Assembly: GCA_023247385.1 (NCBI GenBank)
Contig: JAHFGO010000002.1
Location: forward strand, 5,220-37,532
Source: Candidatus Omnitrophota bacterium
GTDB taxonomy: Bacteria > Omnitrophota > Gorgyraeia > 2-01-FULL-45-10
Length of the DNA: 32,313 nucleotides
Direction of reading: 5' to 3'
Shown here one piece after another: positions 20-24,847 of the stretch (positions are counted from its first letter, which is position 1; each line of letters opens with the position of its first letter). The notes beneath the pieces are model-generated. The model saw only the letters and a list, made by a program, of their open reading frames with translations, was not told the origin of the DNA and did no database searches. The position numbers and the translations under genes were made by a program.

Positions 20-1084
20 TCAAATATAATTCTTGTGGAACAAGGTATTTATTTTATTAAACAATAAACCCCATGGCCAGTAAAATATGGTGGCGAAAAG
101 TATAATTACTAAAAAGGCGTATTCCCCCGCTAAAACCGCTGTAGCGAACATAATCGCGTATATGGATAGAATCAATAACGAGACTGGTAATACTGACTTA
201 AAATAGTGGGTGTCATAACATTTATCATGCTTGATGGGTAGAACATGTTTATGCTTATCGCTTTTGTTTAATCCCAGCACATTTTCCACCGTAGAAAATT
301 CTAAGCGCTCTAATAAAAGATTGATTTTTTTCTCTGCAGATCTAATATTACAGTAATGCATGAACTTGCGGTTAATAGGCAGCTCTATCTTTTCGTGTTC
401 AGAATCAAATTCCCAGGGATGTAGATAAAATATTACAGGATGCCCTAGGCGATTAATCTTTCTGGTAATGCTAAGAATATAAAAATATGGGTTAATGCGC
501 ATAGGTAGCCCCCCGGAAAAAGGAAGTCTTTCCCAAAAGCAGCGAAACGTGCTTAGGGGGAACTCGATAATGCCGCCATATTTTGTTTTTGTCTCGTGCG
601 GATATAAACCAAAATACCTTCCGCCTAAGTGGGTCAGGGGAACAGCGCTTGCATCATATGCAAACCCGTGTTTTTTTAATATTTCCAGCGCCCAAAGGTT
701 GCTTTTCTTCAGAGACCACTCCGGCGCTCTATATCCTAATATTTTCATGCCTGCCGCTTTTTCGATGGCGGCCTTCGAACGAACTAAGTCTCTTTCAAAT
801 TCCTCAGGACCCATATCAAATATCCTGCGATGGGCAAAGCCATGCGAGGCCAACTCATGCCCGGCATCGGCTATTTTTTTAATAAGCCTCGGTGCATTTT
901 CCGCGATTATTCCTACAGTAAAAAAGGTGGCATGAACGTTATGTTGTTCAAAAAGACGCAGGAGCTTTTCTACGTTATTCTCCAGGCGAACGCTATATCT
1001 TCGCCATTTACTTTGCACAGAAGCATCATCAATGCCACAAATATGATACCAGTCTTCTAAATCTACAGAGATTGCGTTAAACAC
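20..1084 (-). CDS. Polysaccharide deacetylase family protein (NodB/DUF3473-like) with C-terminal membrane anchor
   Basis: 354-aa ORF. 'ISVDLEDWYH' and 'GHELASHGFAHR' fit the Asp-containing and His-x3-His metal-binding motifs of NodB-type deacetylases. The last ~60 aa are hydrophobic (about 2 TM helices). Last visible gene of the minus-strand array. Confidence 0.8.
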   Translation of the reverse strand: MFNAISVDLEDWYHICGIDDASVQSKWRRYSVRLENNVEKLLRLFEQHNVHATFFTVGIIAENAPRLIKKIADAGHELASHGFAHRRIFDMGPEEFERDLVRSKAAIEKAAGMKILGYRAPEWSLKKSNLWALEILKKHGFAYDASAVPLTHLGGRYFGLYPHETKTKYGGIIEFPLSTFRCFWERLPFSGGLPMRINPYFYILSITRKINRLGHPVIFYLHPWEFDSEHEKIELPINRKFMHYCNIRSAEKKINLLLERLEFSTVENVLGLNKSDKHKHVLPIKHDKCYDTHYFKSVLPVSLLILSIYAIMFATAVLAGEYAFLVIILFATIFYWPWGLLFNKINTLFHKNYI

Positions 1085-1097
1085 GTATTATCTCATC

Positions 1098-1757
1098 CTA
1101 TTTGTTGCTTTTCCTTATAGCAGGGAAAAGAAAGCGCAAAAGATACAAACATACTCCAAGCGAGACTACGAAACCTATCTTCCAGGAAACAGACCAATTG
1201 AATGCAAGATTCCCAAGTGAAGCATAAAAAACACATGCTGGGAGGCACCCTAACAGCGTGCCGTAAAAGTAGTGCGTGAATTTAATAGGAGTAAAAGCCA
1301 AGCCGCAATTTTGTAAATCGAACGCTACGTTGGGGATAAGCCTCACTAAAAATACTGTAAGAAACCCATGTCTTACCACAACATGGCTCACCATCCGTGT
1401 CTTCTCTTTCAAGAATTTCTTTGCCTTTTCTCCTACAAAGTAACGAACGAGCAAAAATTCACAAACACTTGAACACATTGTCCCTATCAACACGTATACC
1501 GCACCCCACGTACTGCCAAATAATATTCCTCCCAGTATTGCAAAAGGTACTGCTGGAAAAAGCACTAAAGGTCGTAGGACATATCCAAGAAGATACGCCA
1601 ATGGCGCCCACACTCCTATCTTATCTACCCAGTGTTTTATTATTTCTGCTTTCTCGCTGAGATTTAAGAATATGAATCCATGCCAATGTACTAGCATAAG
1701 AACAACACCGCACGTAGCAATACCTATCCCAACCCACATCCACCATCGCATGCGCAT
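1098..1757 (-). CDS. TVP38/TMEM64-type (DedA superfamily) integral membrane protein
   Basis: ORF 1098..1826 trimmed to the ATG at 1757 (MRMRWW...), 2 nt after the upstream TGA (1760-1762). Multi-pass hydrophobic protein with 'VLRPLVLFPAVPFAILGGILFG', typical of SNARE-associated/TVP38 proteins. Confidence 0.7.
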   Translation of the reverse strand: MRMRWWMWVGIGIATCGVVLMLVHWHGFIFLNLSEKAEIIKHWVDKIGVWAPLAYLLGYVLRPLVLFPAVPFAILGGILFGSTWGAVYVLIGTMCSSVCEFLLVRYFVGEKAKKFLKEKTRMVSHVVVRHGFLTVFLVRLIPNVAFDLQNCGLAFTPIKFTHYFYGTLLGCLPACVFYASLGNLAFNWSVSWKIGFVVSLGVCLYLLRFLFPAIRKSNK

Positions 1758-1759
1758 AA

Positions 1760-2845
1760 TCAGTCCTTGTCCACAGAATAACGCGAAAATAGTGCGCAGG
1801 CATTTGCGCCAGCTAAAGCTGTACACATCACAAACATACGATCGACCTGTCTTTTGAGATTGCTAAATACTTCAAAAGAGGAAAGGTTCTCTGAAGAATA
1901 TACCCCGAGTACGCCTAAAATAAGCTGAAACGCTTCGGCTGCGCTAAATCCATATCCAAAACTGTTGCTGCAGTCAAGTACGACACGCTGCGGATGTTTA
2001 AAGGCCTGCAAACACATGTCCCCTCTCTGAAGGCTGTCTTCTTCATCATAGGATGAGCTCAGTAAACAATCGTGTTCTTTTAGCCCATCGCCTATCTGGC
2101 ATAGCAATTCATGTAAAGGAGAAAGATCATAGCGCTTTGCGATATCATATGAGGCAGTGATAGTGTTAACTCCTTTCAGTTGAGCATAAACCCTTACTTT
2201 TCTTTGTATCGCGCACTCCAACGACTCTATTACTAAAAATCCACTTCCTCCAAAACTCCTGGCGATTAGCGCTGAATTACGCAAACACGCACCATAAGCT
2301 TTTACCAAAAAGTCATGATTAACATCCGCTCCTCCAACTAAGCAAACATCAACAATCCCCTCTTCAATAAGTTCTGCACCGAGTCGAAGTGCCTGCATAA
2401 CCGCGCAATATCCAGATAGTGTCGTTGTATAACCACGGATACCCAGTACAGCAGAAATATGGCTCACGGCTGCATTTGGCACCGAGTCGCTGAAAAGGAG
2501 CGGGCTAGAGAGTTTGGGATCACCTAGAACCAAAGAAGCGTGATACTCAATACTATAATGCAGCGGCCCGTGCACAGTCCCAAACACAATGCCAACTTTT
2601 CTGCTGTCTTCGCTGGACAGTGCAGACAACCCAGCGTCTTCTAACGCAAATTTAGCGGCAACCAACGCACAACGTGAAACATGGTCTGCGCGCCGAACCA
2701 ACGAGGTATCGATATGGGCATCGAAATCAATTTTCTCGAGAGGGGTCTGGGGAATAGGCTCTGAAAGGAAACGAGTAAAATTCTCCTTTCCCGCTACCCA
2801 ATCATTTAAGAATCCAACACCAGTTACTACAGTACGTTTTTCCAT
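1760..2845 (-). CDS. Ketosynthase-like partner subunit (CLF/KS-beta-like, probably non-condensing)
   Basis: 361 aa with thiolase/KS-fold N-terminus 'VVTGVGFLN'. A Cys is retained near the active-site position ('LSGYCAVMQAL'). Neither catalytic His context is present (no HGTGT; 'FGYGFSAAEA' instead of GH..GA.G). It is shorter than a true KS and lies 15 nt downstream of a complete KS gene. Confidence 0.7.
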   Translation of the reverse strand: MEKRTVVTGVGFLNDWVAGKENFTRFLSEPIPQTPLEKIDFDAHIDTSLVRRADHVSRCALVAAKFALEDAGLSALSSEDSRKVGIVFGTVHGPLHYSIEYHASLVLGDPKLSSPLLFSDSVPNAAVSHISAVLGIRGYTTTLSGYCAVMQALRLGAELIEEGIVDVCLVGGADVNHDFLVKAYGACLRNSALIARSFGGSGFLVIESLECAIQRKVRVYAQLKGVNTITASYDIAKRYDLSPLHELLCQIGDGLKEHDCLLSSSYDEEDSLQRGDMCLQAFKHPQRVVLDCSNSFGYGFSAAEAFQLILGVLGVYSSENLSSFEVFSNLKRQVDRMFVMCTALAGANACALFSRYSVDKD

Positions 2846-2860
2846 AACCTTATATTCTAA

Positions 2861-4075
2861 TCACTCAAATTTTCTAAAAAGCATGGCTGAATTTGACCCT
2901 CCAAAACCAAAAGAATTGGAAAGGACAACCTTTATGTCTTGCTTTTTACTACCTCCGGTGACTATATTAAGATCACATTCCGGATCCGGAGTTTCAAGAT
3001 TTAAATTTTCTGGAATTATATTTTTCTGCAGCGAAATTACAGAAAAAATTGACTCCGTAGCCCCGGCGGCTCCTAAAAGATGACCGGTAAATGGTTTAGT
3101 GGAACTCACGGGGACTTTTCGCGCATATGCTCCGAGCGCCAGATAAAGCGCTTTTGCCTCCATAATATCGTTCGATGGAGTACCTGTCCCATGAGCATTT
3201 ACATAATCTATTGCTTCAGGCATAATAAGCGCCTCCTCTGTGGCTGCGCATATTGCGCGGGCAGCCCCTTGCGCTTTCGGGTCTGGTTTCGTGATATGAT
3301 AGGCATCTGAGGTTTGGCCATAACCAATAATCTCGGCATAAACTACAGCCCGTCTTTTTATGGCGTGCTCCAGTTCTTCAATCACTACTATTCCTGCTCC
3401 TTCACCAAGTATTAGCCCGCTTCTGTTTTTATCAAAAGGACGACATTTATCCGATGTTACTAACTGCAAGGCATTAAATCCTGCATGAGTAAAATCTGAC
3501 ATTTCATCATAACCGCCTGCAATAGCAAAGGCGGTTTTGCCGAGACGCACGTGTTCATATGCGCATCCTATTGCGCTTAACCCTGAGGCACATGCGTTAT
3601 TAAGCACTATGACCTCTCCAACAATTCCCAGTATTGACGCTATATGAAAAGGTTGACGACAAAGAGCATCTCCCAGAAGCGGGGCATACTTGCGCGTGTC
3701 TTCTTGTAAAAGTATTGCGCGATGATAACGCTGCCCTGCCAGCATCCCCCCAAGAGTAGTCCCCACAATCAACGGTGCTTTTATATACTGTTTTTCAGAA
3801 GTTGCAAGTTTTGCGCTTTCTAACGCCTCAGTGCATGCGCGCAAGAGTAGTTTGGAAGAGCGGCCGAGCGGAAATCGCGGATTTTCATCAAGGCCACATT
3901 CAAGTATCTTTGGATCAACTTCACCGCCTTGGCTCGTTCTATGTTTTGAGGCATCAAATGAAGTAATCGTATCTATTGCTGACCTGCTTTCTTTCAGGGC
4001 CAAAGCTGTCGCATCAACACCGGCGCCTAGAGAAGTCACGATCCCCATGCCTGTAATTACTACTCGTTTTTTCAT
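2861..4075 (-). CDS. Beta-ketoacyl-ACP synthase (KAS II / FabF-like), catalytically complete
   Basis: 404 aa. Contains 'NNACASGLSAIG' (active-site Cys), 'NAHGTGTPSND' (His), 'TGHLLGAAGA' (His) and C-terminal 'NSFGFGGSNSAMLF'. Confidence 0.9.
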   Translation of the reverse strand: MKKRVVITGMGIVTSLGAGVDATALALKESRSAIDTITSFDASKHRTSQGGEVDPKILECGLDENPRFPLGRSSKLLLRACTEALESAKLATSEKQYIKAPLIVGTTLGGMLAGQRYHRAILLQEDTRKYAPLLGDALCRQPFHIASILGIVGEVIVLNNACASGLSAIGCAYEHVRLGKTAFAIAGGYDEMSDFTHAGFNALQLVTSDKCRPFDKNRSGLILGEGAGIVVIEELEHAIKRRAVVYAEIIGYGQTSDAYHITKPDPKAQGAARAICAATEEALIMPEAIDYVNAHGTGTPSNDIMEAKALYLALGAYARKVPVSSTKPFTGHLLGAAGATESIFSVISLQKNIIPENLNLETPDPECDLNIVTGGSKKQDIKVVLSNSFGFGGSNSAMLFRKFE

Positions 4076-4083
4076 GTCGGTAT

Positions 4084-4986
4084 TTATTTATTCCATATTG
4101 CGGAGAAATTGAACCATTGGCTTGGATATAAGCGTATGTACTGCTCAAAAATGTGCGCTATCTTAGCTGTATTGACGCGGATATCCTCATCCCTATCTTC
4201 ACCCCACTCCATAGATATGGGAGAACCTAAAACTGTTCTGTATTTTTTATCCGGCTCTAAGACTGTAAAGGCCGGAAGCAATGAAGCACCGGTAGTCCTT
4301 GCCAACAACACAGGTCCTTGCGGAAAATATGTTTTTTCCCCAAAAAAATCAACAAGCACACCATTCTCCTTCTCGTATCGGTCAACAAGCATTGCGACAA
4401 GCTCGTTCCGCTTGAGCGCATTGACAATATCAATAAAAAAGAAGGGGTCATCTTCGATAGTGATCGTTTTCATATTATGCAGAGCCCTTACCTTTGTACG
4501 CGCTTGCGCAATCGCCTCAACCCCGTCTTTTGCAGTAATAATGTTGAAGGGGATTCCTGAGTTCGTAAAAACAAGCCCTCCCAGTTCCCAATTTCCCAGA
4601 TGGGCAGCCAAAATAATGATGCCCTTGCCCCTTGCATGCGTTTTTTTAAAAATGTCTTCTCCTTCGATCTTGCCAAAAAACAAGACTGCCTTAGATGTAC
4701 CTAAAGAGCTAAGCTTAGCCCAATCCGCTAAATATGTTCCGTAATTGATAAAAAGCTCTTTCGAGGTCTTATGTAATTGCGCTGGGTTATCGCCGATAAC
4801 GCGTAAAAGATTGCTCTCAACCTGGCCTCTTGCATTTTTATCAATAAAATACCAGATTCCCGCACTAATTCTGGCAGCTAACCGCATAATACAAAGAGGC
4901 AACAGCTTCGCTATTACAAGTGATATCCTGTAACTCCAAGCGTAATTAAATATATTCTTCTTTGGCGAACGTTTTGTTTGCATCAT
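4084..4986 (-). CDS. LpxL/HtrB-family (lysophospholipid/lipid A-type) acyltransferase
   Basis: 300 aa with an N-terminal TM segment. 'AAHLGNWELGG' matches the H-x4-(D/E) acyltransferase motif in the form seen in LpxL/LpxM-type enzymes. ATGA start/stop overlap with the upstream ATP-grasp gene (4983-4986). Confidence 0.75.
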   Translation of the reverse strand: MMQTKRSPKKNIFNYAWSYRISLVIAKLLPLCIMRLAARISAGIWYFIDKNARGQVESNLLRVIGDNPAQLHKTSKELFINYGTYLADWAKLSSLGTSKAVLFFGKIEGEDIFKKTHARGKGIIILAAHLGNWELGGLVFTNSGIPFNIITAKDGVEAIAQARTKVRALHNMKTITIEDDPFFFIDIVNALKRNELVAMLVDRYEKENGVLVDFFGEKTYFPQGPVLLARTTGASLLPAFTVLEPDKKYRTVLGSPISMEWGEDRDEDIRVNTAKIAHIFEQYIRLYPSQWFNFSAIWNK

Positions 4987-6152
4987 GAGCGGTATTTTTT
5001 CATTTCATCGCTAGTGAGGTAGTCAAGCAAAGCCAGCGATAACCCTAAAAAAGGCAATGGGTCGGATAGCGACCATACGGCATGACAATTGTTTTTTTCA
5101 AATAATTTAAAGACATCAAGATCAAATTTCCTTTGGGCGGTTAAATTTGCGAGAAAATTCATAAAATCACCCTGCATAAACCAGCGAAACTTCACACCTG
5201 CCTGATATTCAAAATGAGGCGCGATATCACCATGTACGGCAAGTTGATACAGTAGATAAGGAATGTTAATTCCGGAAGAAATCGCTAGCTGTAATGACCC
5301 CCATAATCGCGGGTTCACTTCCATTAACTTTGGGGAGCCATTTCTTTGATCGATCTTAAACTCAATATTTGCGCTCCCGTACCATCCGATAGAGGTAAGC
5401 AACGTTTCTGCTATTTCTATGAGTCGAGGAAATTTTACCGACACCGCATAAGTACTCGCCCCGCCTGTGACAGGGTACTGACGCAGTTTTTTGTGCACAA
5501 AGGCGCTCCGCATCTGATTGCGCGCATTAAAAAGGACTGATACGCCATAATAGTCATTACCAGGAATATATTCCTGCATTAGAAACGTTCCGTATTTCTT
5601 ACGCATGCTATCGCAGTGCGCATCAGACGTATCTTTGGTAAGCACATAGCGAATTCCATGGCCGCCAGTGCCAATAACAGGCTTCAACACCAAAGGAATT
5701 GACAACTCCTGCATACCCCTTTGGGCATCGTCAAGCGTATTAATCATCAATGTCTTTGGACAGGGTATTCCAAGTTTCTGGGCATGAGTGAGAAGGCTAA
5801 ATTTATTGCGCGTAAAAGCGAGTGTTTCGTATTGAGTGAGCGGTATACGAATATATGATGAAAACTCTGAAGTGTGCTGCGCTACCAATAAGCTCGTTTC
5901 TTCTTCCGGAGTAATAAGAACATCGTATTTATTGGATTTAACGGTAAGTTTAAGCCAAATCAGGAAACCATCCGAATTTTTCTCGGGAGAGGGATAAATA
6001 TATCTATGGCTAACATATCGAGAGAGCAGGGCCGGAGCCATCCAAGTGCGTTCCCCCACGGCAACTTTAACTCCAGAATGAGATAATGCCCTTACGGCTG
6101 CGAGAGATTTGCGCCAAATACCATCGGTGACAAGCACGCTTTTATTACGCAT
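4983..6152 (-). CDS. ATP-grasp domain protein (carboxylate-amine/thiol ligase type)
   Basis: 389 aa. Rossmann-like pre-ATP-grasp N-terminus ('VLVTDG...AAVRALSHSGVKV') is followed by 'PLVLKPVIGTGGHGI', 'LMQEYIPG' and 'NIEFKID...PKLMEVNPRLWGS', which resemble the nucleotide- and Mg-binding segments of ATP-grasp enzymes. 8-nt overlap with the upstream gene. Confidence 0.7.
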   Translation of the reverse strand: MRNKSVLVTDGIWRKSLAAVRALSHSGVKVAVGERTWMAPALLSRYVSHRYIYPSPEKNSDGFLIWLKLTVKSNKYDVLITPEEETSLLVAQHTSEFSSYIRIPLTQYETLAFTRNKFSLLTHAQKLGIPCPKTLMINTLDDAQRGMQELSIPLVLKPVIGTGGHGIRYVLTKDTSDAHCDSMRKKYGTFLMQEYIPGNDYYGVSVLFNARNQMRSAFVHKKLRQYPVTGGASTYAVSVKFPRLIEIAETLLTSIGWYGSANIEFKIDQRNGSPKLMEVNPRLWGSLQLAISSGINIPYLLYQLAVHGDIAPHFEYQAGVKFRWFMQGDFMNFLANLTAQRKFDLDVFKLFEKNNCHAVWSLSDPLPFLGLSLALLDYLTSDEMKKYRS

Positions 6153-6987
6153 CCCTGTATCTCATTTTTCTCGCTATAGTAGTTTTACTTACACCGGGAA
6201 CCAATAACCGCTTGCCGCTTATAGCGTATAAGGCATCCGCCAGTAATCCTGAACTATAAGAGACAATCCGTTTGCTAAGTACGTGGGGCCTTGTCGCGCC
6301 TCCAGGAAAGGTCTGGATTTCGTTAAATCCAGTTTTTTCTAAGGCCAGGGCGATGGTACGAGGAGAAAAATCGCTTACATGGGAAGGAGTGTCATACAGT
6401 CTATTGGGAATTCCGAGTATTTTTAGAACTTTTACAAGTGGAGTCGTGTGGGGTGCTCTTATCAACAACAAGCCGCCCGGTTTTAGGGTGCGATTAATTT
6501 CGTTAAGGTACCGCAGCGGCTCCGGTAAATGCTCAAGCACATAAAAAAGCGTAATAACATCAAACATCTCATCTTTATATGCTCGAGCAAAGAGATTTCT
6601 TGAGTCAACTTCAAGCGATTTTGATACTGCATAGGCTCGCGCATGCGCGCACGGCTCCACTCCATAGACCCGCCATCCCCTTTGACGCGCCAGCTCCATA
6701 AAAAATCCGTAGCCGCAGCCAATATCCAGCAATGTGCCTCTATTAAGACCATACCTCGCTTCAATGGCATCTAAAGATCTTCGAAAAACATCCGACATCA
6801 TCGTACGCCATTGCTCGATACGATTTTTGTCTGCGGGAAGATACTTCTGATAGTGAAGATAGAGAAACTTCTCATCAGGAAGCGGGGTGACGTATACAAA
6901 TGAGCAGGTCTTGCATTGTACTACGTCCCACGCATCCTCTTTTTTGATGAAACAAACATCTTCCCCGCCACAGATATGACAACGCAA
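6145..6987 (-). CDS. Class I SAM-dependent methyltransferase with N-terminal 4-Cys zinc ribbon
   Basis: 280 aa. 'CHICGG...CKTCSF' zinc ribbon, SAM motif I 'LLDIGCGYGFF', then 'VYGVEP' and 'FDVITLFYVLEHL'. Confidence 0.85.
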   Translation of the reverse strand: MRCHICGGEDVCFIKKEDAWDVVQCKTCSFVYVTPLPDEKFLYLHYQKYLPADKNRIEQWRTMMSDVFRRSLDAIEARYGLNRGTLLDIGCGYGFFMELARQRGWRVYGVEPCAHARAYAVSKSLEVDSRNLFARAYKDEMFDVITLFYVLEHLPEPLRYLNEINRTLKPGGLLLIRAPHTTPLVKVLKILGIPNRLYDTPSHVSDFSPRTIALALEKTGFNEIQTFPGGATRPHVLSKRIVSYSSGLLADALYAISGKRLLVPGVSKTTIARKMRYRDA

Positions 6988-7025: not shown

Positions 7026-7595
7026 TTACTTTTCAAATCCACCTGTTTTGACAACAATTCCATTCGCGAAGGTTACCATCACATCATGCCCGCGCGAATT
7101 GTTCATGTAATACCATTTATCGCTTTGCATAATTTCGGCAAAGGATTTTCTTTCAGACGTCTTCCCCCACGCGATATAGGCAGGGCACCCTTTCGATACA
7201 TATACTTCTTCTTTGGTCATACCAGCTACTACCCCGCCATTCTCAACTTGTTCTTTTTTATCGGGAGAAAGCTTCTCTAACCCAATCTCCTTTTTGTCCT
7301 TTACGAAAAACTTATCCCACTTATTAGAATCAGCCGCTATCCTATATGTTTTTTTGGTATCGATTCTGATGAACCCAATGCTTCCACCCGTGCTTTTCTC
7401 AATCTTCACTTCGGTACCTACCGGAATTAAATTTTTGAAAATCCTCATGTTGTGCCAGAATACTGTATTTCCGTCCGCGCGTAAATTGGAGCGGGCATAA
7501 GCCGTCTCCCCTTTTTCCAGTATAGCCGCATATGTGCTGCCTATAAAACTTAAACAGCAAATAACCACTAAAAACATCAACGCCAGCTTCTTCAT
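7026..7595 (-). CDS. Secreted protein of unknown function, BamE/SmpA-OmlA-like C-terminal half (paralog of 8343..8909)
   Basis: 189 aa. Signal peptide MKKLALMFLVVICCLSFIGSTYA|A. 'GMTKEEVYVSKGCPA' resembles the BamE/OmlA motif. Collinear similarity to the 8343..8909 product (YAR.NL...W.N, VGT.VK, KF.VK, GMTKEEVY, IM.S..W.Y). 4-nt overlap with the upstream fabZ gene. Confidence 0.6.
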   Translation of the reverse strand: MKKLALMFLVVICCLSFIGSTYAAILEKGETAYARSNLRADGNTVFWHNMRIFKNLIPVGTEVKIEKSTGGSIGFIRIDTKKTYRIAADSNKWDKFFVKDKKEIGLEKLSPDKKEQVENGGVVAGMTKEEVYVSKGCPAYIAWGKTSERKSFAEIMQSDKWYYMNNSRGHDVMVTFANGIVVKTGGFEK

Positions 7596-8053: not shown

Positions 8054-8318
8054 TATTATTATCCTCTATAAATTTAACTATGGTTTCAACCGAAACTAAA
8101 ACTTTTCTGCCCACATCGGCATCAGGGATCCTTGCTCCGAATTCCTTTTCGAGCGCAACCACCAATTCAAGGGCATCTAAAGAATCAAGCCCTACCCCTC
8201 CGGCCCCAAATAAAGGCTGCGTATTTTTAATGCTTTCTGGAGGAATCTTCAGCCTTACTACCTTGACAATCATTTTTTTCACACGATCATAGAAATCGAT
8301 TTCGTTCCCTTGTTCCAT
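8034..8318 (-). CDS. Acyl carrier protein
   Basis: 94 aa. Phosphopantetheine attachment motif 'GLDSLDALELVVALEKEFG'. AGGAGG Shine-Dalgarno about 10 nt upstream (rc of 8325-8335). Confidence 0.9.
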   Translation of the reverse strand: MEQGNEIDFYDRVKKMIVKVVRLKIPPESIKNTQPLFGAGGVGLDSLDALELVVALEKEFGARIPDADVGRKVLVSVETIVKFIEDNNSGKSPQ

Positions 8319-10335: not shown

Positions 10336-10345
10336 GATTCTAAAT

Positions 10346-10486: not shown

Positions 10487-10492
10487 ATGATT

Positions 10493-11245: not shown

Positions 11246-11273
11246 ATTCGCCTCCCAAAGGCCTGAAAACAAC

Positions 11274-18653: not shown

Positions 18654-19735
18654 AGTAACACGTCTTCTTTTTCTCGTTTTTTCTTCCACCATGGGCGGTA
18701 TACTTTAAAATATAAAATTGAACCAACTTGGCGCAGCATTGATTTCTCAAAAGAAACATCCCCGAGGCATCTTTGACAATATGGCTCTTTTATGCGTAAT
18801 CTATCAAACCCACCGATGACATCTTGCACCTTTTTTTGAGTTAGCGCTTTCGTAATAGAGGTTTCTTTTATATTTCCAAAATTTGTACTACCATTGAAAT
18901 CTGCACAACAAAATACTATACTACCATTACTTAGAATACCAAAATGTGTCTTAAGTCCTTCACAATAACCAATATGCGCTCTTGTCATTTTTTTAGCAGA
19001 TAGACCATGATGAATCCAGTCGCCCAAAACCCTTGTCTCTAAGCTGAGCTTATTGGTAATGCTAAGCTTATTCCATCCCATAATGTGAAACGAGGATAAC
19101 TTCTTAATAAGCAACTCTTTTTTGGAACCTAGTTTCTTACAAAATGTATTCTCCTGCACTAATATAGCGATCTCATCAAGCCATTCTAAAAAAGATGCAA
19201 CTATTTCTTTTTTATTACGTATGATGCTATACCTTCTGCTCGGAAGGCTAAGAAATGGGATCGGTGTAGTTAAAAAGGAAAGTGTGGCTTTTGCGGAGCC
19301 ATGATCAATTATTTTAGCAATTAAAGAACAAATTCTTTTTTTATACGTAAAAAAATCAACGGGCACCTTGCGTAATTTAAAAGAATTTTCATTAGGAGTC
19401 TGCGCTGAAAATACAATATGGTCAATTCCTGCCTTTAATATTCTATCCAAAAGTTCTAATGACAAACCCCATCCGTTTGTTGTAAGCACTGCGTTAAGTC
19501 GTCTATGCTTGGTTTCTTTAATAATGTTTTCGAGGTCCGCATATAACGTGGGTTCACCCATAACATGAAAATAAATTGTGTCTGTAAGCCGCTCTTGCGC
19601 AATCTCGTCCAGGGCCCTGCGAACAAGATCGGGTTTCAAGTCTTGCGGTGGACGCAACATCAGCGTATTTGGACAAAACACGCATGAAAAATTGCACCGA
19701 TTGGTAAGCTCGATATGAATTCTTTGAAACGTCAT
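18644..19735 (-). CDS. Radical SAM enzyme (fourth in the cluster), C-terminal Cys-rich extension
   Basis: Trimmed to the ATG at 19735 (MTFQRIHIELTNRCNFSCVFCPN = CxxxCxxC), preceded by AAAGG. C-terminal 'IVFCCADF...PYCQRCLG' suggests a partial SPASM/twitch-type auxiliary cluster. Confidence 0.85.
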   Translation of the reverse strand: MTFQRIHIELTNRCNFSCVFCPNTLMLRPPQDLKPDLVRRALDEIAQERLTDTIYFHVMGEPTLYADLENIIKETKHRRLNAVLTTNGWGLSLELLDRILKAGIDHIVFSAQTPNENSFKLRKVPVDFFTYKKRICSLIAKIIDHGSAKATLSFLTTPIPFLSLPSRRYSIIRNKKEIVASFLEWLDEIAILVQENTFCKKLGSKKELLIKKLSSFHIMGWNKLSITNKLSLETRVLGDWIHHGLSAKKMTRAHIGYCEGLKTHFGILSNGSIVFCCADFNGSTNFGNIKETSITKALTQKKVQDVIGGFDRLRIKEPYCQRCLGDVSFEKSMLRQVGSILYFKVYRPWWKKKREKEDVLLCA

Positions 19736-19748: not shown

Positions 19749-20414
19749 CTACGCAATTTTACCATCTAGGACTTGCATTTGCCGGTCATGATATTCTGTG
19801 GAGATGTTTTCATGGGTAACCATGACTACCGTTACATTGTGCTGCCGGTTCACACGACGTAATAATTGCAGGATATTTTCAGCATTGCGGGAGTCAAGGC
19901 TCCCGGTTGGCTCATCCGCAAAAATCACTGACGGACCGGCCACTAAGGCCCTGGCCACCGCTACCCTCTGGCGCTGTCCCATTGATAAAACTTTGACCGA
20001 TGCCTTAACTCTATCCGTTAATCCTACATCGTTTATAATTTCTCTTGCGCGAAGAAGGCTCTCCTTACGGCTTAACGGTATTTCCATTAATGGTAACATT
20101 ACATTTTCTAGAACATTGAGATTCTGCCAAAGATAAAAAGCCTGAAAAATAAACCCCATATTTTTAACTCGAAAACCTCTTTGACGACAAACCGCGTGAA
20201 TAGATTTTCCATTAAAAAAAACCGTCCCATTGGTTGGTGAATCCAACCCGCCGAGCAAGTGCAACAATGTGGATTTACCACTGCCACTTGGGCCACGAAT
20301 AGCCAATATCTCCCCTGAGTAAACCTGCAAAGAAAGGTTGTTCACTGCTTTAACCTGGCCGTCCTTATAAAATTTGGAAATGTTTTTTGCTTCTAGTAAT
20401 ATTGATTTATTCAT
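19749..20414 (-). CDS. ABC transporter ATP-binding protein (MacB/LolD-type)
   Basis: Trimmed to the ATG at 20414 (MNKSILLEAKN...), giving an ATGAATAA overlap with the permease stop. Walker A 'GPSGSGKST', signature 'LSMGQRQR', Walker B 'IFADEPT', H-loop 'VTHE'. Confidence 0.9.
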   Translation of the reverse strand: MNKSILLEAKNISKFYKDGQVKAVNNLSLQVYSGEILAIRGPSGSGKSTLLHLLGGLDSPTNGTVFFNGKSIHAVCRQRGFRVKNMGFIFQAFYLWQNLNVLENVMLPLMEIPLSRKESLLRAREIINDVGLTDRVKASVKVLSMGQRQRVAVARALVAGPSVIFADEPTGSLDSRNAENILQLLRRVNRQHNVTVVMVTHENISTEYHDRQMQVLDGKIA

Positions 20415-21537
20415 AGCGCAGCACATCGATCGGTTCAATAGAAACCGCCTTGACCGCAGGATAGACTCCTGCAAAAACACCTACCAATACGGAAAGCCCT
20501 AATGATTTAACTATAAAAAGATCGTCAGGCATCATAGATATAAAACCTTGGACTGCTGGAGCGGTAATTAATGACCTTGTCATAGTACAACCCAATATAA
20601 CCCCAATGATGCCGCCCAACAATCCGTATATAGCCGATTCGAAAAGAACGAGCGTAATAATGCGGTACTTACGCCAACCAATAGCCAGAAGGATGCCAAT
20701 TTCTTTTTTCCGTTCCAAAACAGCCGTAGACATAGTGTTAATGATCCCCATAACAACTATAATAAATACCACGATGGAAATTGCCCAGGTAAAACTAAAA
20801 ACTATAGCAAATGGAGTAGAGACAAAATCTCGCACATCCTTAACCTCCAAATCGCTGAATTCAGAATTAATTTTATCCTGTACTTGCTGCGAAATAGCCT
20901 GTCGTTGCTCAAGGCTCATTTTTAATGAATCGTTGCAGTCCAGTCTTACATTAATGGCGGTAATCTTGCCGGGCGTCTTTTTAATCCTCTGCAGGGTGTT
21001 CAAAGGCACGATAATACCGCTTTCTTCCAGCATGTTCATGCTTTGAAAAACCCCGCAAATACGAAATTTCTCACCTCTTATATTGATTTCATCTCCTTGA
21101 AACTTATTCAACCTTTTGGCAGCTACTGCGCCAACTAAGGCATCGTAATCATTCCGTAAAGCAGAACCGACTATTTTAAACTCTTCAAAATGATAGCTGT
21201 CAGTTTCCCATCCATATAGAAGAAAGTATTGTTTAAATTTTACTGCATAAAAATAAAACAAAATCGGGGCTGCTTGCTTTACATGTGGTATGCGTTTTAA
21301 TGATTCTATGTAAGACTGATCTATGGTGCTGGAAAAGATATCTAAAGTAGCCTTTTCCATTACCACCAGATCCGTTCCTCTGGCTTTATAGGTGGATTGC
21401 AGTGACTTTTCCAGATTATCAGTGAGGCCGCTCAAAGAAACAAAAGCAGCTATGCTTATCCCTACACCTAGTATGGTAAGTCCGCTACGTACTTTTTGAT
21501 GCCAAAGATTCTTGCAGACAATTGTAAGTAAACTCAC
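20407..21537 (-). CDS. ABC transporter permease, FtsX/MacB-LolCE type
   Basis: 376 aa. TM1 ('GLTILGVGISIAAFVSL'), then a ~230-aa extracytoplasmic domain, then a C-terminal three-TM FtsX-type bundle ('LLAIGWRKYRIITLVLFESAIYGLLGGIIG'). Confidence 0.85.
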   Translation of the reverse strand: MSLLTIVCKNLWHQKVRSGLTILGVGISIAAFVSLSGLTDNLEKSLQSTYKARGTDLVVMEKATLDIFSSTIDQSYIESLKRIPHVKQAAPILFYFYAVKFKQYFLLYGWETDSYHFEEFKIVGSALRNDYDALVGAVAAKRLNKFQGDEINIRGEKFRICGVFQSMNMLEESGIIVPLNTLQRIKKTPGKITAINVRLDCNDSLKMSLEQRQAISQQVQDKINSEFSDLEVKDVRDFVSTPFAIVFSFTWAISIVVFIIVVMGIINTMSTAVLERKKEIGILLAIGWRKYRIITLVLFESAIYGLLGGIIGVILGCTMTRSLITAPAVQGFISMMPDDLFIVKSLGLSVLVGVFAGVYPAVKAVSIEPIDVLRYE

Positions 21538-21560: not shown

Positions 21561-22223
21561 TTAATTTTTGGTTTCTATAATTTTTTTAAAGTCTGCTGAA
21601 GTGAATATCTCTAAAGCTGAATCTTGAATAGTTTTTGCCAACCAGCTTTTTAGATCTTCAGTAGAGTCAAATATTCCTCCACTCATTCCAGCACGCTCAT
21701 TTCTAATTAACGTGGACCTCCACATCGAATTGTTGGTTGTTGGATCAATTAACTCTATAGATATATTGACCACCACTCCTCTGTTCATTAAAGTCTCGAC
21801 TATCAAACCATTAATTACTCCAACTAGAATCGGCCGTTTGGAATTTTTAATATTTTCAATAACCCACCCATCCCCTTTTTTTCGAGCAACTAAGTCATCC
21901 GGCTTTCTATCGGCAATAATAGCTGATGCCCTAGCAGCATTAATTACTTGCTCTCTTACAAATTCATCTGCGCCTCTACTGTCGCGAATTCTGGTCCATG
22001 GGTTCCCATATCCACCGCGTATGGTTCCAAGTATTGTAGTATCAACATTACTGCCTTTCCTTAAATCTAGAAATGGCCCGACATAAATTTTTCCTATAGC
22101 ATTTTCTTCTCTTACCTGAGAAATGTTTTCAAGCCGCGCAGTAGGTATACTTGCACAACCTGCAAGAAATGTTAAAGCGAGAATTAACACTAGTCCATTT
22201 TTAAAATTACTTAAAATCTTCAT
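21561..22223 (-). CDS. Lipoprotein of unknown function
   Basis: 220 aa. Signal peptide with lipobox 'LTFLAG|C'. No recognisable catalytic motif. Loose architectural resemblance to the 23209..23835 lipoprotein. Confidence 0.6.
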   Translation of the reverse strand: MKILSNFKNGLVLILALTFLAGCASIPTARLENISQVREENAIGKIYVGPFLDLRKGSNVDTTILGTIRGGYGNPWTRIRDSRGADEFVREQVINAARASAIIADRKPDDLVARKKGDGWVIENIKNSKRPILVGVINGLIVETLMNRGVVVNISIELIDPTTNNSMWRSTLIRNERAGMSGGIFDSTEDLKSWLAKTIQDSALEIFTSADFKKIIETKN

Positions 22224-22272: not shown

Positions 22273-22992
22273 TTAAGCCAGCTCGATCTTAGCGCGCACT
22301 GAATCCCGTAGTTTTTCAAAATCGTCTAGCCCGAGCCCAGCTGTGTTAATAGGTTCTAATATCTTCATGCGTACTGGCACCTTGGTGGTAAATAGCCAAG
22401 TGCCCCTCGGGATTGCGGCGCTAGTACCTTTTATCGATATGGGCAGGATCGGGACTTGTTCTTTTATCGCTAATTTGAACGCGCCATTCTGAAACTCTTT
22501 CATCCCATCAGCATTACCACGTGTGCCTTCTGGAAAAATTGATACTGACATACCACGCCTCAGCCAAGCTGCGGCCTCTTGGTATGCTTTTTTTATGCTC
22601 TCAAACTTTCCTTTTCTAAGTTTAATATGCTTGGCTAGGCACATAGCCCAACCAACAATAGGTAATCTAAATAAGTGCTCGTTAGCAATCCATTTAAACT
22701 GCATATTCGTCTGATACAGTAATATAATATCGGTAAGGCTTTGGTGATTTGCCACTATGACATAGGTCTTGGTCTTGTTTATATTTTTAAGGCCACTTAT
22801 CTCGATATCCCAATAAGGATTCAGCGCGATAAGTAAATCCGACCACAGAAAAGAGTGGGCATGGGCAATCTTTCTCATTTTATCAAACGGATATAGGATG
22901 GCGGTAAAAAAAAGAATCGAAAAAAAGAAAAGCACAGTTAAGACAGAGCCGACGACCCATATTATACAAGATATCAATATCTTTTTGAACAT
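22273..22992 (-). CDS. plsC: 1-acyl-sn-glycerol-3-phosphate acyltransferase family (PlsC-like)
   Basis: 'VANHQSLTDI' (H-x4-D) and 'FPEGTRG' motifs, with an N-terminal TM helix. The start is uncertain: GTG 23040, ATG 23022 or ATG 22992. I list ATG 22992 (MFKKILIS...). Confidence 0.75.
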   Translation of the reverse strand: MFKKILISCIIWVVGSVLTVLFFFSILFFTAILYPFDKMRKIAHAHSFLWSDLLIALNPYWDIEISGLKNINKTKTYVIVANHQSLTDIILLYQTNMQFKWIANEHLFRLPIVGWAMCLAKHIKLRKGKFESIKKAYQEAAAWLRRGMSVSIFPEGTRGNADGMKEFQNGAFKLAIKEQVPILPISIKGTSAAIPRGTWLFTTKVPVRMKILEPINTAGLGLDDFEKLRDSVRAKIELA

Positions 22993-23208
22993 TACGTATA
23001 ATATACCATTTATTGTCAACATATTACCATATAAAAACACTCGTCGATATGCGAAAATCAGTTAAAATTGAATATGGTCCTCCTATAATAAGGGTAGGTA
23101 TTTTAGGAGTATCAACCCCTTATAAAGAAAGGAAGACCGATGAGAAGTTTAGCACTAAGAAGGAGAAAATCCGCCTTTTTCCAACCAGGTTAGAATTATG
23201 ATACGGCT

Positions 23209-23835
23209 TTATTTCTTAATCTCCGATAGAAGATGTTTAAATTCTCCGTCGCGGAATAGTTCGTCTACGCTCGCCTGCATACTATCTTCGATCAATTTTT
23301 CACAACCGAACTGTCCAGTCATGCCTATCCAGTTCTCAGCGTGTCCTGAATAGGTCCTGTTGAAAATGTTCTTCCCATCTCTATCGAAAATTTTGACATA
23401 GAAAGAAGTGGTCCCCGTGCCCTTTTCCATAATAGCGTCGAAGGACGCTACCAGAAAATTGTCTACGCCTCCCGATAGAAAGGCATTGCCGTTATTCGAC
23501 TTCAATATCTCCGCCATCTCACCTTTATCCATCCTATTCGAAAGATTCGCTTTCTGCACATTGAATCCCTCGTTTCTCAGCCTTGACGCGATCCTGTTTG
23601 TGAGAACAATATTTATCGCTGTCTGGGATTTAAGCTGCAAGGCGCCAACCTGCCCAATCTTGACTTTATCCGCCCGATTGTCTACCAGGTCCGCTAATAT
23701 AATTTTCGGTGCGCCTTGTATCGTCGGCAGATTATAGACATTACCTGTGTCTGTTATCTTTGCCGAATACGCGCAGCTTGACAACATAATCACAAGCAAA
23801 CCCAAAATACCAAATAAACCAAATTTTCTCATCAC
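23209..23835 (-). CDS. Lipoprotein of unknown function
   Basis: 208 aa. Signal peptide with lipobox 'IMLSS|C'. Lies immediately downstream (19 nt) of the beta-barrel gene. Confidence 0.6.
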   Translation of the reverse strand: MMRKFGLFGILGLLVIMLSSCAYSAKITDTGNVYNLPTIQGAPKIILADLVDNRADKVKIGQVGALQLKSQTAINIVLTNRIASRLRNEGFNVQKANLSNRMDKGEMAEILKSNNGNAFLSGGVDNFLVASFDAIMEKGTGTTSFYVKIFDRDGKNIFNRTYSGHAENWIGMTGQFGCEKLIEDSMQASVDELFRDGEFKHLLSEIKK

Positions 23836-23854: not shown

Positions 23855-24646
23855 CTAAAATAAATATTTAACCGCTATATTGCCGCCGTAAGTATACAGA
23901 TCGTTATCCGGCCAGACCAGATTACCCGACGTGCCGCCTTCGAGGTGTTGAAACGTGAAGAATCCTCCGAGGCTTAAAGCCAGATTTTCGCTATATTTGT
24001 AATTGACATTCGTTTCAGTCCTGATGGTATACCCGCCGTCGCCGTTCACATCGCCCAGCACGCTATTGTGCGCTGAATTGTAGACGACGAACCCGAACAT
24101 GCTCTTCAGATCAACCTTTAACTTGTCGCTTACGTTATAGACCAGTTTTCCTCCAAGGTCCAGATGGTGAACCCAATAGTCCTCGTCGACGATGGCGGTG
24201 CTGGTGATCTTGCTTAAGACAATGAAATTGGTTCTGGTAAATCTCGTGAAGTTGAAGCCGTATCCGCCCAATAAGGCAAAAGGCATCTTGTCAACGATTA
24301 TGGGCATCGCGTAGCCTAATTCGATGTTGCCCTCCATCCCCCAGAATTTCATATCGTCGGTCTGATACTTTACGCTCGACACGTCCCACTGCTCCTCGGC
24401 GGAGGCTGTAACCGGTATGCCAAGGTCCACCCTTCCGACCAGGCCCTTCTCCTTAAAATAATTCGCGCTGATAAGGCCTTCGTAGTAAAAGGCGTTCCAC
24501 TTGCTGTCTATCGTGCTGTATTCCTCGTGATAGTGCGTCCCGCCGATCTTGTTCTCGAATGCTATGTCCCAATCCGCCGCGCGCGCTATATACGGAGATA
24601 AAACTACCATCGCTAAAGCCACAACCGCCAGCTTTATCACTTTCAT
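23855..24646 (-). CDS. Outer-membrane beta-barrel protein (small porin/OMP-like)
   Basis: Trimmed to the ATG at 24646 (MKVIKLAVVALAMVVLSPYIARA|AD), with an AGAGGTG RBS about 6 nt upstream. Alternating hydrophobic/aromatic-rich strands throughout. C-terminal '...IAVKYLF' ends in Phe, as in typical OMP beta-signals. The 22-codon extension in the ORF track is just the translation of a terminator hairpin. Confidence 0.7.
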   Translation of the reverse strand: MKVIKLAVVALAMVVLSPYIARAADWDIAFENKIGGTHYHEEYSTIDSKWNAFYYEGLISANYFKEKGLVGRVDLGIPVTASAEEQWDVSSVKYQTDDMKFWGMEGNIELGYAMPIIVDKMPFALLGGYGFNFTRFTRTNFIVLSKITSTAIVDEDYWVHHLDLGGKLVYNVSDKLKVDLKSMFGFVVYNSAHNSVLGDVNGDGGYTIRTETNVNYKYSENLALSLGGFFTFQHLEGGTSGNLVWPDNDLYTYGGNIAVKYLF

Positions 24647-24660
24647 ACACACCTCTGCTT

Positions 24661-24678
24661 TCTCTATGATCTCTATGA
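24661..24678 (-). repeat. Tandem 9-bp direct repeat (TCTCTATGA x2) between terminator and RBS
   Basis: Read directly: tctctatga tctctatga at 24661-24678. On the minus strand this is UCAUAGAGA x2, immediately upstream of the Shine-Dalgarno of the first operon gene. Confidence 0.8.
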
Positions 24679-24679
24679 C

Positions 24680-24706
24680 AAAAAAATGGCGCAAAACTTT
24701 TGCGCC
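24680..24706 (-). terminator. Canonical Rho-independent terminator in the operon leader
   Basis: Minus-strand RNA reads GGCGCAAAAGUUUUGCGCC (perfect 19-nt palindrome, 24688-24706), then A UUUUUUU (24680-24686). It ends 33 nt upstream of the OMP start codon. Confidence 0.7.
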
Positions 24707-24818
24707 CTTCATCCATTATAAGAAGTAATTTTCATTTCTTATGCTTAAGTATATACCCCACCCAGCAACAATGTAAACATTTTTTCACCCGCATGTTTTA
24801 TATGCGGCAATCATGAGA

Positions 24819-24847
24819 AGTTTACCACACATTTGATTTTTTGTCAA
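24819..24847 (-). promoter_or_regulatory. Sigma70-like promoter candidate for the lipid operon
   Basis: Minus strand: TTGACA (rc of 24842-24847), 17 nt, TAAACT (rc of 24819-24824), with a TGg extended -10 immediately upstream. Located in an AT-rich intergenic region. Would give a ~165-nt leader. Confidence 0.4.

Follow-up and report, generated by a model that had tools for sequence, protein, structure and literature searches.

The gene train and its acyl-chain genes

We analysed a 32,313-nt stretch of DNA from a Candidatus Omnitrophota bacterium (assembly GCA_023247385.1, contig JAHFGO010000002.1, positions 5,220 to 37,532; hereafter the window), in which a long train of minus-strand genes combines parts of a type II fatty acid synthase (FAS-II) or type II polyketide synthase (PKS) with four radical S-adenosylmethionine (SAM) enzymes. 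Judged by its gene content and gene order, this lipid operon is the counterpart of the kuste3335-3352 operon of anammox bacteria and belongs to a widely distributed 'ladderane-type' FAS-II/type-II-PKS and radical-SAM system. It is a new and unusually complete member of an orphan family that has been known since 2006-2009, and not itself a new kind of system. The product of this family has been sought since the Kuenenia genome (Strous 2006) and the work of Rattray 2009 (PMC2649909).

Between positions 20 and 24646, the minus strand carries 26 intact open reading frames (ORFs; starts as called on the source contig) with a coding fraction of 0.98 and a median intergenic distance of 11 nt according to the gap table. 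At 22 of the 25 junctions, neighbouring genes overlap or are separated by 40 nt or less, the exceptions being gaps of 168 nt (g02/g03), 157 nt (FabG/CrtI), and 49 nt. The first-pass annotation, which was made from the DNA letters and their ORFs, had described about 27 tightly packed minus-strand genes; the packing stands, and the count is corrected to 26. The overlaps quoted there were all exact on the minus strand, namely ATGA at 4983-4986 and 7592-7595, ATGAATAA at 20407-20414, and the overlaps at 6145-6152, 8034-8053, 13924-13961, and 18644-18653. As the sizes of the window genes agree with those in relatives, no degradation is apparent, and the operon is an intact, single-operon copy with at least 23 colinear genes at 98% coding density.

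Pfam and NCBIfam scans of the 26 products bore out the domain content that had been listed earlier, with small corrections only (Table 1), and three genes that were absent from the earlier list were added, which encode a DedA/VTT protein and two secreted paralogs. Relatives of the operon were collected by aligning g13, a B12-binding radical SAM enzyme, with one genome per species (GTDB contigs, 185,579 species), which yielded 341 encoding stretches. The best 80 of these were compared, including 10-kb flanks, in a tblastn matrix with all 26 window proteins, and the neighbour counts given below refer to the 26 loci with full flanks. Individual loci are denoted by L and a number.

Table 1. Genes and leader features of the gene train, all on the minus strand and listed from its upstream end; curated cut-offs are given in brackets after the bit scores.
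Gene	Product or feature	Position	Basis
	Promoter-like site TTGACA-17-TAAACT in the upstream leader	24847-24819	Consensus scan
	Terminator-like hairpin GGCGCAAAAGTTTTGCGCC followed by a T-run	24706-24688	Sequence reading; between the promoter-like site and the g01 start codon
g01	Predicted 10-stranded outer-membrane beta-barrel	23855-24646	AlphaFold2 (AF2) model, mean confidence (pLDDT) 84.7; Pla/OmpT/OpcA at TM 0.6-0.67
g02	Lipoprotein, membership in the system doubtful	23209-23835	Lipobox LSSC
g03	PlsC-type (lysophospholipid) acyltransferase	22273-23040	PF01553 99.9 bits
g04	Lipoprotein, family unassigned	21561-22223	Lipobox LAGC at residue 20
g05	MacB/LolCE-type ATP-binding cassette (ABC) permease	20407-21537	MacB_PCD 77 bits; FtsX 68 bits
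g06	ABC ATPase (LolD/MacB-like)	19749-20414	ABC_tran 116 bits; LolD 224 bits (308)
g07	Radical SAM, SPASM/twitch-like C-terminus (pair a)	18644-19735	PF04055 70 bits; SPASM 42.5 bits
g08	Ketosynthase 1, FabF-like, Cys-His-His intact	17430-18692	Both ketosynthase domains by Pfam; triad by alignment
g09	Degenerate ketosynthase-like partner 1, chain-length-factor type	16345-17418	Pfam, N-terminal ketosynthase domain alone
g10	PaaK-type adenylating ligase	15008-16315	FlxY_rubin 455.5 bits, full length (520); PaaK 201 bits
g11	Radical SAM/SPASM, AhbD/NirJ-like (pair b)	13924-14994	PF04055 70 bits; SPASM 24.4 bits
g12	B12-binding radical SAM with DUF4070	12654-13961	Pfam; all NCBIfam matches below cut-offs, no curated family
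g13	B12-binding radical SAM, family TIGR04072	11274-12650	NCBIfam 412 bits (360)
g14	FabG-type ketoreductase	10493-11305	adh_short_C2 217 bits; NF009466 232.9 bits (222)
g15	CrtI/CrtISO-family flavoenzyme	8914-10335	Amino_oxidase 93.5 bits; crtI_fam 132 bits (238)
g16	Secreted or membrane-anchored protein	8343-8909	No Pfam family
g17	Dedicated acyl carrier protein	8034-8318	PP-binding 38.7 bits; DSLD motif
g18	FabZ-type dehydratase	7592-8053	FabZ NF000582 130.9 bits (113); FabA domain 88.6 bits
g19	Secreted paralog of g16	7026-7595	31% identical to g16, E 2e-20; no Pfam family
g20	Class I SAM methyltransferase	6145-6987	Methyltransf_23 90.8 bits
g21	ATP-grasp ligase	4983-6152	ATPgrasp_Ter and ATP-grasp_3 (Pfam)
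g22	LpxL/PIM-type acyltransferase	4084-4986	Lip_A_acyltrans 124 bits; nearest NCBIfam model PIM acyltransferase
g23	Ketosynthase 2, Cys-His-His intact	2861-4075	Pfam and alignment
g24	Degenerate ketosynthase-like partner 2, chain-length-factor type	1760-2845	Pfam, N-terminal ketosynthase domain alone; both His missing
g25	DedA/VTT-domain membrane protein	1098-1757	VTT_dom 83 bits
g26	CE4 polysaccharide deacetylase with DUF3473	20-1084	Pfam; TIGR03006 265.5 bits (276.2)

The core of the operon consists of two complete ketosynthases (KS), each with a degenerate KS-like partner, as had been annotated. The alignment confirmed the catalytic triad in g08 and g23 and the loss of both His residues in g09 and g24, and in g09 also a Ser in place of the catalytic Cys. 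In anammox loci, g08 and g23 have homologues of 42-44% and 46-47% identity, respectively. The top Protein Data Bank (PDB) match of g09 is 9s5h_C (33 bits), a chain of an entry with two KS chains. The partner g24 matches 6smo_C at 35.7 bits, which was deposited as 'Ketoacyl_synth_N domain-containing protein' and which we take to be the chain-length factor (CLF)-type partner of an aryl-polyene system. The acyl carrier protein (ACP), FabG, and FabZ are each encoded once. FabG also matches the flexirubin protein FlxB (241.8 bits, under the 340-bit cut-off), and FabZ remains below the cut-off of the ApeI-like model (26.6 versus 28.5 bits). The nearest curated family of the ligase g10 is flexirubin FlxY (NCBIfam), and the protein matches phenylacetate-CoA ligases of the PDB at E 6e-45. 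FabD, FabH, FabI, and Acc domains were found in none of the 26 products (Pfam scan), in line with the earlier view that this is not a housekeeping locus but a dedicated acyl-chain cluster with radical-SAM tailoring.

All four radical SAM enzymes carry the CX3CX2C motif (motif scan). Two had been described as B12-binding, one as a SPASM enzyme, and one as a further radical SAM; the B12-binding pair was confirmed, but the SPASM enzyme is not single, as both enzymes that are not of the B12-binding type have a SPASM domain above the cut-off of 21.5 bits. In g07, the motif lies at residue 24, and alignment with the Jettenia homologue extends over the full length at 35% identity. The second SPASM enzyme, g11, has 10 Cys residues from residue 253 on (11 past CX3CX2C if C245 is counted), and its homologues, present in 18 of the 26 full-flank loci, always adjoin the TIGR04072 enzyme. 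The B12 enzyme g12 is 50-51% identical to Jettenia and Brocadia homologues and 40-43% identical to those of Geobacter. Its neighbour g13 is 43-46% identical to the Brocadia and Jettenia orthologues and belongs to TIGR04072, an NCBI curated equivalog named 'lipid biosynthesis B12-binding/radical SAM protein'; a literature search for TIGR04072 or for 'lipid biosynthesis B12-binding' found nothing. The CrtI-like enzyme g15 has anammox homologues of 30-33% identity. The methyltransferase g20 shares 38-41% identity with the enzyme encoded after FabZ in anammox loci, likewise a methyltransferase, and is probably the other, kuste3338-type anammox methyltransferase, because no AmxMT1 entry could be identified among its PDB matches.

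The counterpart in anammox bacteria

The published kuste3335-3352 operon consists of a glycosyltransferase, a phytoene-desaturase homologue, a SAM methylase, FabZ, ACP, FabG, two radical SAM enzymes, and a phenylacetyl-CoA ligase, followed by an unknown protein, FabF, a SAM methylase, a non-canonical FabF, FabF, ACP, a conserved hypothetical protein, and an unknown protein (Javidpour 2016, PMC4790861). We read the conserved hypothetical protein as the deacetylase. The published order is also that of the Brocadia and Jettenia loci (L008, L011, and L023), and the order of one block, comprising ligase, radical SAM, B12-radical SAM, FabG, ACP, FabZ, and methyltransferase, is identical in the window and in the kuste operon.

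The agreement goes far beyond this block. The Jettenia and Brocadia loci contain homologues of 20 of the 26 window genes at 25-60% identity, including all four radical SAM enzymes. Shared are both KS/CLF pairs, the PaaK-like ligase, both SPASM and both B12 radical SAM enzymes, FabG, ACP, FabZ, the methyltransferase, the CrtI-like enzyme, the ATP-grasp ligase, the CE4 deacetylase, the LpxL-type acyltransferase, DedA, and g16, together with a weak match to PlsC. The accessory set (deacetylase, ATP-grasp, CrtI-like enzyme, LpxL-type acyltransferase, DedA, the second radical-SAM pair, and g16) is 28-60% identical in Jettenia CP091278 and the Brocadia loci. The operons also differ in several aspects. 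Blocks are permuted between them, the CrtI gene lies between FabG and ACP in the window but at the far end of the anammox operon, and a glycosyltransferase and a second methyltransferase are present in the anammox operon but not in the window, which carries a MacB/ABC pair and its own lipoproteins where the anammox loci have LolA. Unlike the kuste operon, the window comes from a non-anammox bacterium.

By means of the g16 homologues, we could trace the operon further upstream of the deacetylase in Jettenia CP091278.1 (L127, 6732-13431) and in Brocadia carolinensis (L125), where genes for an LpxL-type acyltransferase, LolA, DedA/VTT, a SPASM radical SAM, the g16 homologue, a DUF4070 B12 radical SAM, and an ATP-grasp enzyme precede the deacetylase. 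When these Jettenia and Brocadia loci, and not the Kuenenia sequence itself, are mapped onto the published kuste gene list, the anammox operon appears to be longer than kuste3335-3352 by at least seven genes upstream of the kuste3351-equivalent deacetylase. In the Brocadia carolinensis metagenome-assembled genome (MAG; L008/L125), the homologues of the SPASM radical SAM, KS2, and PaaK each appear to be split into two pieces by frameshifts or assembly errors.

The first-pass annotation had viewed the operon as a merger of aryl-polyene and ladderane cluster themes. This view did not hold, because the anammox operon with its upstream extension already contains the 20 counterparts, including all four radical SAM enzymes. 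The proposed kinship with candidate ladderane clusters and their look-alikes, on the other hand, is borne out by the synteny with anammox and other loci. The extension and all four radical SAM enzymes are common to non-anammox bacteria as well, which argues against the large operon being specific for ladderanes.

Distribution and synteny across phyla

The 341 stretches that encode g13 relatives derive from Omnitrophota, Planctomycetota, Nitrospirota, NC10, Desulfobacterota, and others, mostly uncultured lineages known from MAGs. The nearest named g13 homologues, by which the analysis placed the host, are those of other Omnitrophota (65-69% identity), followed by Kiritimatiellia (52%), Brocadia (about 46%), and Nitrospirota (about 45%). 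The tblastn maps revealed a conserved block in the order PaaK-like ligase, SPASM radical SAM, TIGR04072 enzyme, FabG, ACP, FabZ, and methyltransferase, which is present in Omnitrophota, Planctomycetia, Kiritimatiellia, Brocadia, Jettenia, Nitrospira/Nitrospirota, NC10, and Desulfobacterota/'Deltaproteobacteria' MAGs; the order was recovered in the maps of L005, L003, L008, L011, L023, L014, L022, and L007. In the window, this block is interrupted by g12 and the CrtI gene. Close relatives (L082 from GCA_041643075.1, L083, L005, and L002) are colinear from g05 to g25 at 46-85% amino acid identity, and colinearity in this identity range was likewise seen for L084. The co-conserved neighbourhood that had been postulated was thus found both by the tblastn maps across phyla and by the colinearity of close relatives.

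A KS, FabG, ACP, and FabZ lie beside the TIGR04072 gene in 19 of the 26 full-flank loci. Ten of these 19 loci are of the type with the ligase, and nine are of a Geobacter type, which has several g12-like B12 radical SAM enzymes, an LpxL-type acyltransferase, and a deacetylase, but no ligase.

TIGR04072-like radical SAM enzymes of 37-41% identity also occur without neighbouring KS, ACP, or FabZ genes, namely in Gammaproteobacteria (L066-L072 and L076-L081) and in Nitrospirota (L044, L052, and L053). Members of this family can thus be found away from FAS-like clusters.

Acyltransferases, head-group enzymes, and envelope proteins

Of the two acyltransferases, the LpxL-type g22 is 33% identical to the product of the first gene of the Jettenia operon, and the PlsC-type g03 has a homologue of 74% identity at the equivalent position in L084. 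The deacetylase g26 is 51-53% identical in anammox loci and falls just short of the XrtA-type model TIGR03006. The ATP-grasp ligase g21 is 40-47% identical in anammox loci, and homologues of the DedA/VTT protein g25 lie within the Jettenia and Brocadia operons.

The secreted protein g16 is the best-conserved protein of the system, with 57-60% identity to the Brocadia and Jettenia homologues versus about 45% for the enzymes. Its AF2 model (pLDDT 86.6) shows an N-terminal helix, an SH3-like beta domain, and a BamE-like domain; a fold search of the PDB returned no match with E <0.001 and only matches to the SH3-like subdomain. The paralog g19 is kept in L082, L083, L005, L002, and L003.

Every relative that reaches far enough upstream begins with a MacB-type permease and an ABC ATPase, and L084 has a PlsC-type acyltransferase just before them. 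The g05 homologues at the cluster head are 66-81% identical in L082, L083, and L084, and g06 is kept beside g05 in relatives. The lipoprotein next to the pump varies: the window has the LAGC lipoprotein g04, which has no Pfam match and a weak similarity (E 0.005) to a Lipoprotein_16/LptE-like lipoprotein in L083, and relatives have Lipoprotein_16/LptE-like or DUF4823 proteins. As close relatives keep the MacB/ABC pair (with PlsC in L084) and the anammox loci carry LolA instead, the system includes an envelope-export block that is conserved but differs by lineage.

Boundaries of the operon and neighbouring genes

The first-pass annotation had included a beta-barrel outer-membrane protein and two lipoproteins. 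The assignments themselves were supported, those of the lipoproteins g02 and g04 by their lipoboxes and that of the barrel g01 by its AF2 model with OmpT/Pla/OpcA fold matches. Their membership in the cluster was not confirmed for g01 and g02, as their relatives lie in other contexts. Only seven homologues of g01 were found in all, none of them beside a radical-SAM lipid cluster. The homologue of g02 (60-62% identity) is encoded near a g01 homologue in L129 (7301-10512), where both are close to a relative of the 1577-aa protein described below and away from radical-SAM lipid clusters. We therefore rejected g01 and g02 as parts of the export module; they probably belong to the upstream neighbourhood. 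The placement of their homologues elsewhere, together with the 168-nt gap before g03, suggests that the lipid operon proper begins at 23040, with g03 as the probable first gene.

In the leader upstream of g01, the hairpin could be an attenuator or other leader element, or the end of an upstream transcript. Promoter-like sites are no more frequent across the region than expected by chance (consensus scan), and an Rfam search of the window found no RNA family.

Genes on the same strand continue to the left of the window on the source contig (ENA ERZ27297570, 99,895 bp), namely three small ORFs of 69, 106, and 92 aa and genes for an alpha/beta-hydrolase, a 4HBT thioesterase, and a beta-oxidation set (acyl-CoA ligase, thiolase, FadB-like enzyme, and acyl-CoA dehydrogenase). 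The operon may run on into this region, and the hydrolase and the thioesterase might belong to the cluster.

On the other side, an IS3/IS481-like transposase gene on the plus strand (25315-26652; rve domain; NF033516 at 91 bits, below cut-off) separates the gene train from upstream minus-strand genes. These encode a 1577-aa protein (27565-32298), in which peptidase domains of the C39 and the permuted-papain C92 (YiiX-like) type are weakly recognised; two small ORFs come after it, one of them TPR-like. The GC content around the gene of the giant protein is 0.50-0.55 versus about 0.42 in the operon.

Comparison with look-alike clusters and with Cluster I

antiSMASH-based surveys have called 'ladderane' clusters in Omnitrophota and other non-anammox MAGs, with no product (PMC9902471). 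The look-alikes in Desulfotalea psychrophila, Geobacter, and Pelobacter (Rattray 2009, PMC2649909) share with the window the TIGR04072-type radical SAM by FabG, KS, ACP, and FabZ, and the Geobacter-type loci additionally share the g12-like B12 radical SAM enzymes, the LpxL-type acyltransferase, and the deacetylase. The hosts of these look-alikes do not produce ladderanes, and no product is known there. Geobacter-type loci lack the PaaK-like ligase, the methyltransferase, the ATP-grasp enzyme, the CrtI-like enzyme, and the second KS/CLF pair, whereas the g12-type enzyme is multiplied in them. Among the loci examined, the gene set of the window is the fullest.

A second anammox gene set, Cluster I (kuste3603-3608), is described as restricted to ladderane producers and central to ladderane synthesis (Barends group). 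It encodes amxACP, amxFabZ, amxFabF2/amxFabFmut, PDH, and a B12 radical SAM, and thus the same kinds of parts that the window contains: besides an ACP and a FabZ, these are a B12 radical SAM, a CrtI-like enzyme, and a KS that is accompanied by a degenerate partner. The synteny of the window, however, is with the larger operon and not with Cluster I, and the nearest named relatives are Omnitrophota MAGs. We also considered a direct link to Cluster I, which was rejected, as PDB searches with the ACP, FabZ, both CLF-type proteins, the methyltransferase, and the ligase gave no specific closeness. The window FabZ scored 96.6 bits with canonical FabZ versus 74-82 bits with the 8ay*/7qv0 entries, which we take from their deposit names to be amxFabZ structures, and no entry identifiable as amxACP was among the best 60 PDB matches of the window ACP. 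The matches of g09 and g24 to chains B and C of 9s5h, presumably the amxFabF heterodimer according to the deposit names, were weak (33-47 bits) and similar to the scores with canonical FabF, so that the proteins agree with the amxFabF2/amxFabFmut subunits in kind.

Two FabF homologues of anammox bacteria, one active and one inactive, were shown to assemble into a KS/CLF-like heterodimer with decarboxylase activity on malonyl-ACP, which in crosslinking assays appeared to favour C6 and C8 over C16 substrates (bioRxiv 10.64898/2026.05.19.726425). By analogy, the same heterodimer logic most likely applies to the window pairs g08/g09 and g23/g24. An anammox methyltransferase from these clusters may C-methylate a short beta-ketoacyl-ACP, as deduced from its crystal structure, an AmxACP pull-down, and docking, with no activity shown.

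Proposed pathway and alternative explanations

What we establish here is the gene content, the active-site status, the orthology, and the synteny of the operon. We consider it probable that the operon is a functional member of a family of lipid operons making a tailored acyl or polyketide envelope lipid, and we place much less confidence in any single chemical step than in the reading as a whole. In the proposed pathway, the PaaK/FlxY-like ligase g10 would activate a starter acid, and the two KS/CLF-type heterodimers would lengthen the chain with malonyl units on the dedicated ACP, with malonyl loading left to the housekeeping FabD. FabG and FabZ would process each round and, because no enoyl reductase (ER) is encoded, the chain would keep its double bonds if neither the CrtI-like flavoenzyme nor the housekeeping FabI works on it. 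The two B12-radical SAM enzymes, the two SPASM radical SAM enzymes, and the methyltransferase would then modify the chain without oxygen, by C-methylation, by forming C-C bonds, or by both. The two acyltransferases, of the LpxL and the PlsC type, would transfer the acyl group to a (glyco)lipid acceptor, whose head group may be remodelled by the CE4 deacetylase and the ATP-grasp ligase, and DedA, the MacB-type ABC pair, and the small lipoproteins would carry the product out of the inner membrane. That the product is esterified to a lipid anchor and exported to the outer membrane is a reasonable inference, the export part of which is supported by the conservation of the MacB/ABC/PlsC block in close relatives.

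Several points weigh against this reading. The starter, the chain length, the radical-SAM chemistry, and the acceptor are all assigned by family resemblance, and the ligase, the deacetylase, and the CrtI-like enzyme do not reach the curated cut-offs of the named families closest to them. The operon may also continue beyond the left window edge, so that the gene set is possibly incomplete. As the first-pass annotation had stated for the radical-SAM cluster type, the literature names no product for any member of the operon family. Finally, expression of the Kuenenia genes in Escherichia coli did not give rise to a new fatty acid, with kuste3342 and kuste3343 not being detected (PMC4790861).

The best-placed alternative is a more specific version of the proposed pathway, in which an aromatic acid primes a KS/CLF polyene synthase without ER, radical SAM enzymes replace oxygen-dependent tailoring, and the LpxL-type acyltransferase fixes the resulting aryl-polyene or flexirubin-like pigment to an envelope lipid. 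We regard this as a possible but rather unlikely outcome. Aryl-polyene and flexirubin clusters have in common with the window a dedicated ACP, KS/CLF, ketoreductase, dehydratase, the absence of ER, a starter ligase nearest to FlxY, a methyltransferase, an LpxL-type acyltransferase, and an export module. The full-length alignment of g10 with FlxY, the match of FabG to FlxB, and the match of g24 to 6smo_C also fit. The corresponding parts of these clusters are ApeO/ApeC as KS-CLF, ApeH/FlxY as ligase, ApeB as methyltransferase, ApeD as LpxL-like acyltransferase, and LolA/MMPL for export, and we counted the presence of a methyltransferase and an LpxL-type acyltransferase in the window in favour of this alternative. 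However, the FlxY, FlxB, and ApeI-like cut-offs are not reached, and by its curated cut-off the dehydratase is a FabZ. The window also lacks an ApeK-type thioesterase, a second ACP, and an enzyme that forms an aromatic acid, and Pfam detected no LolA-like or MMPL/RND export protein and no thioesterase among the 26 products, the 4HBT thioesterase lying outside the window; the MacB-type ABC pair stands in place of MMPL/LolA. In addition, the four radical SAM enzymes, the ATP-grasp enzyme, the CE4 deacetylase, the CrtI-like enzyme, and DedA go beyond the content of aryl-polyene clusters. Described aryl-polyene clusters are not known to contain radical SAM enzymes, and no pigment has been reported for carriers of the operon.

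An oxygen-independent route to polyunsaturated fatty acids or hydrocarbons, in which the CrtI-like enzyme and the radical SAM enzymes add double bonds, has a slim chance. The presence of a CrtI-family enzyme and the lack of ER would suit it, but other bacteria use Pfa/Ole systems to produce such hydrocarbons. This route was proposed by Rattray et al. for clusters common to Kuenenia and Desulfotalea (PMC2649909), and it agrees with the polyunsaturated hydrocarbons described in the literature for Desulfotalea psychrophila, a carrier of a syntenic cluster. On the other hand, such fatty acids were undetected in anammox bacteria and in E. coli expressing the genes, and the Kuenenia CrtI homologues showed no phytoene desaturase activity, as no lycopene was made (PMC4790861).

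The proposed acyl or polyketide lipid is also to be preferred to a hybrid lipopeptide, in which the SPASM/B12 radical SAM enzymes and the ATP-grasp enzyme would mature a ribosomal peptide, to which the FAS-like part would then add an acyl chain and which would leave the cell through the MacB-type ABC pump. SPASM/B12 radical SAM and ATP-grasp enzymes are typical peptide maturases, g11 and g12 weakly match models of maturases for ribosomally synthesized and post-translationally modified peptides (RiPPs), the ATPase g06 matches peptide exporters such as DarD (181 bits), and the three small ORFs after the operon on the source contig might come into question. All RiPP model scores, however, are far below the cut-offs, and none of the relatives showed a conserved gene for a precursor peptide within the cluster. 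The sole gap ORF (51 aa at 10332-10487) is of low complexity and without counterpart in L082, whose gap at this place measures 50 nt, and in every phylum the radical SAM genes are interleaved with those for ACP, KS, ketoreductase, and dehydratase, which makes this alternative very improbable.

It is harder still to believe that a non-anammox bacterium makes true ladderane lipids with fused cyclobutane rings. The operon is orthologous to one of the operons first proposed for ladderane synthesis and has four radical SAM enzymes, but the same operon occurs in many phyla never found with ladderanes, none were found in D. psychrophila (literature), and the anammox-restricted Cluster I has no evident counterpart in the window. 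An ordinary housekeeping fatty acid synthesis locus can be dismissed for all practical purposes, since the FabF-, FabG-, FabZ-, and ACP-like genes are accompanied by degenerate KS partners, four radical SAM enzymes, and a starter ligase but not by FabD, FabH, FabI, or Acc, the KS reach only 378 bits versus the fabF equivalog cut-off of 494 (NCBIfam), and a separate canonical FabF exists in anammox bacteria (literature).

Mid-chain methyl-branched fatty acids were considered as a product as well, as 10- or 11-methyl-C16 fatty acids occur in anammox bacteria, NC10, and Nitrospira. This candidate was rejected, as a literature search found no link to radical SAM enzymes, and more than 20 genes are far too many for such a product.

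More speculatively, the B12/SPASM pairs of the shared system of about 20 genes might cyclise or cross-link the unsaturated ACP-bound chain, so that its carriers would make strained-ring or rearranged envelope lipids, related to ladderane precursors, that have been missed by lipid surveys; we hold this to be improbable, too.

For the tailored envelope lipid that we propose as the product, the sharing of the large operon points to tractable carriers, such as Geobacter and Desulfotalea, in which the product may be found. The comparison also brings to light an uncharacterised conserved family of secreted proteins, g16 and g19, of which g16 is better conserved than any other protein of the system. 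In the window, the gene sets of anammox-type and Geobacter-type loci come together in one compact and intact version.

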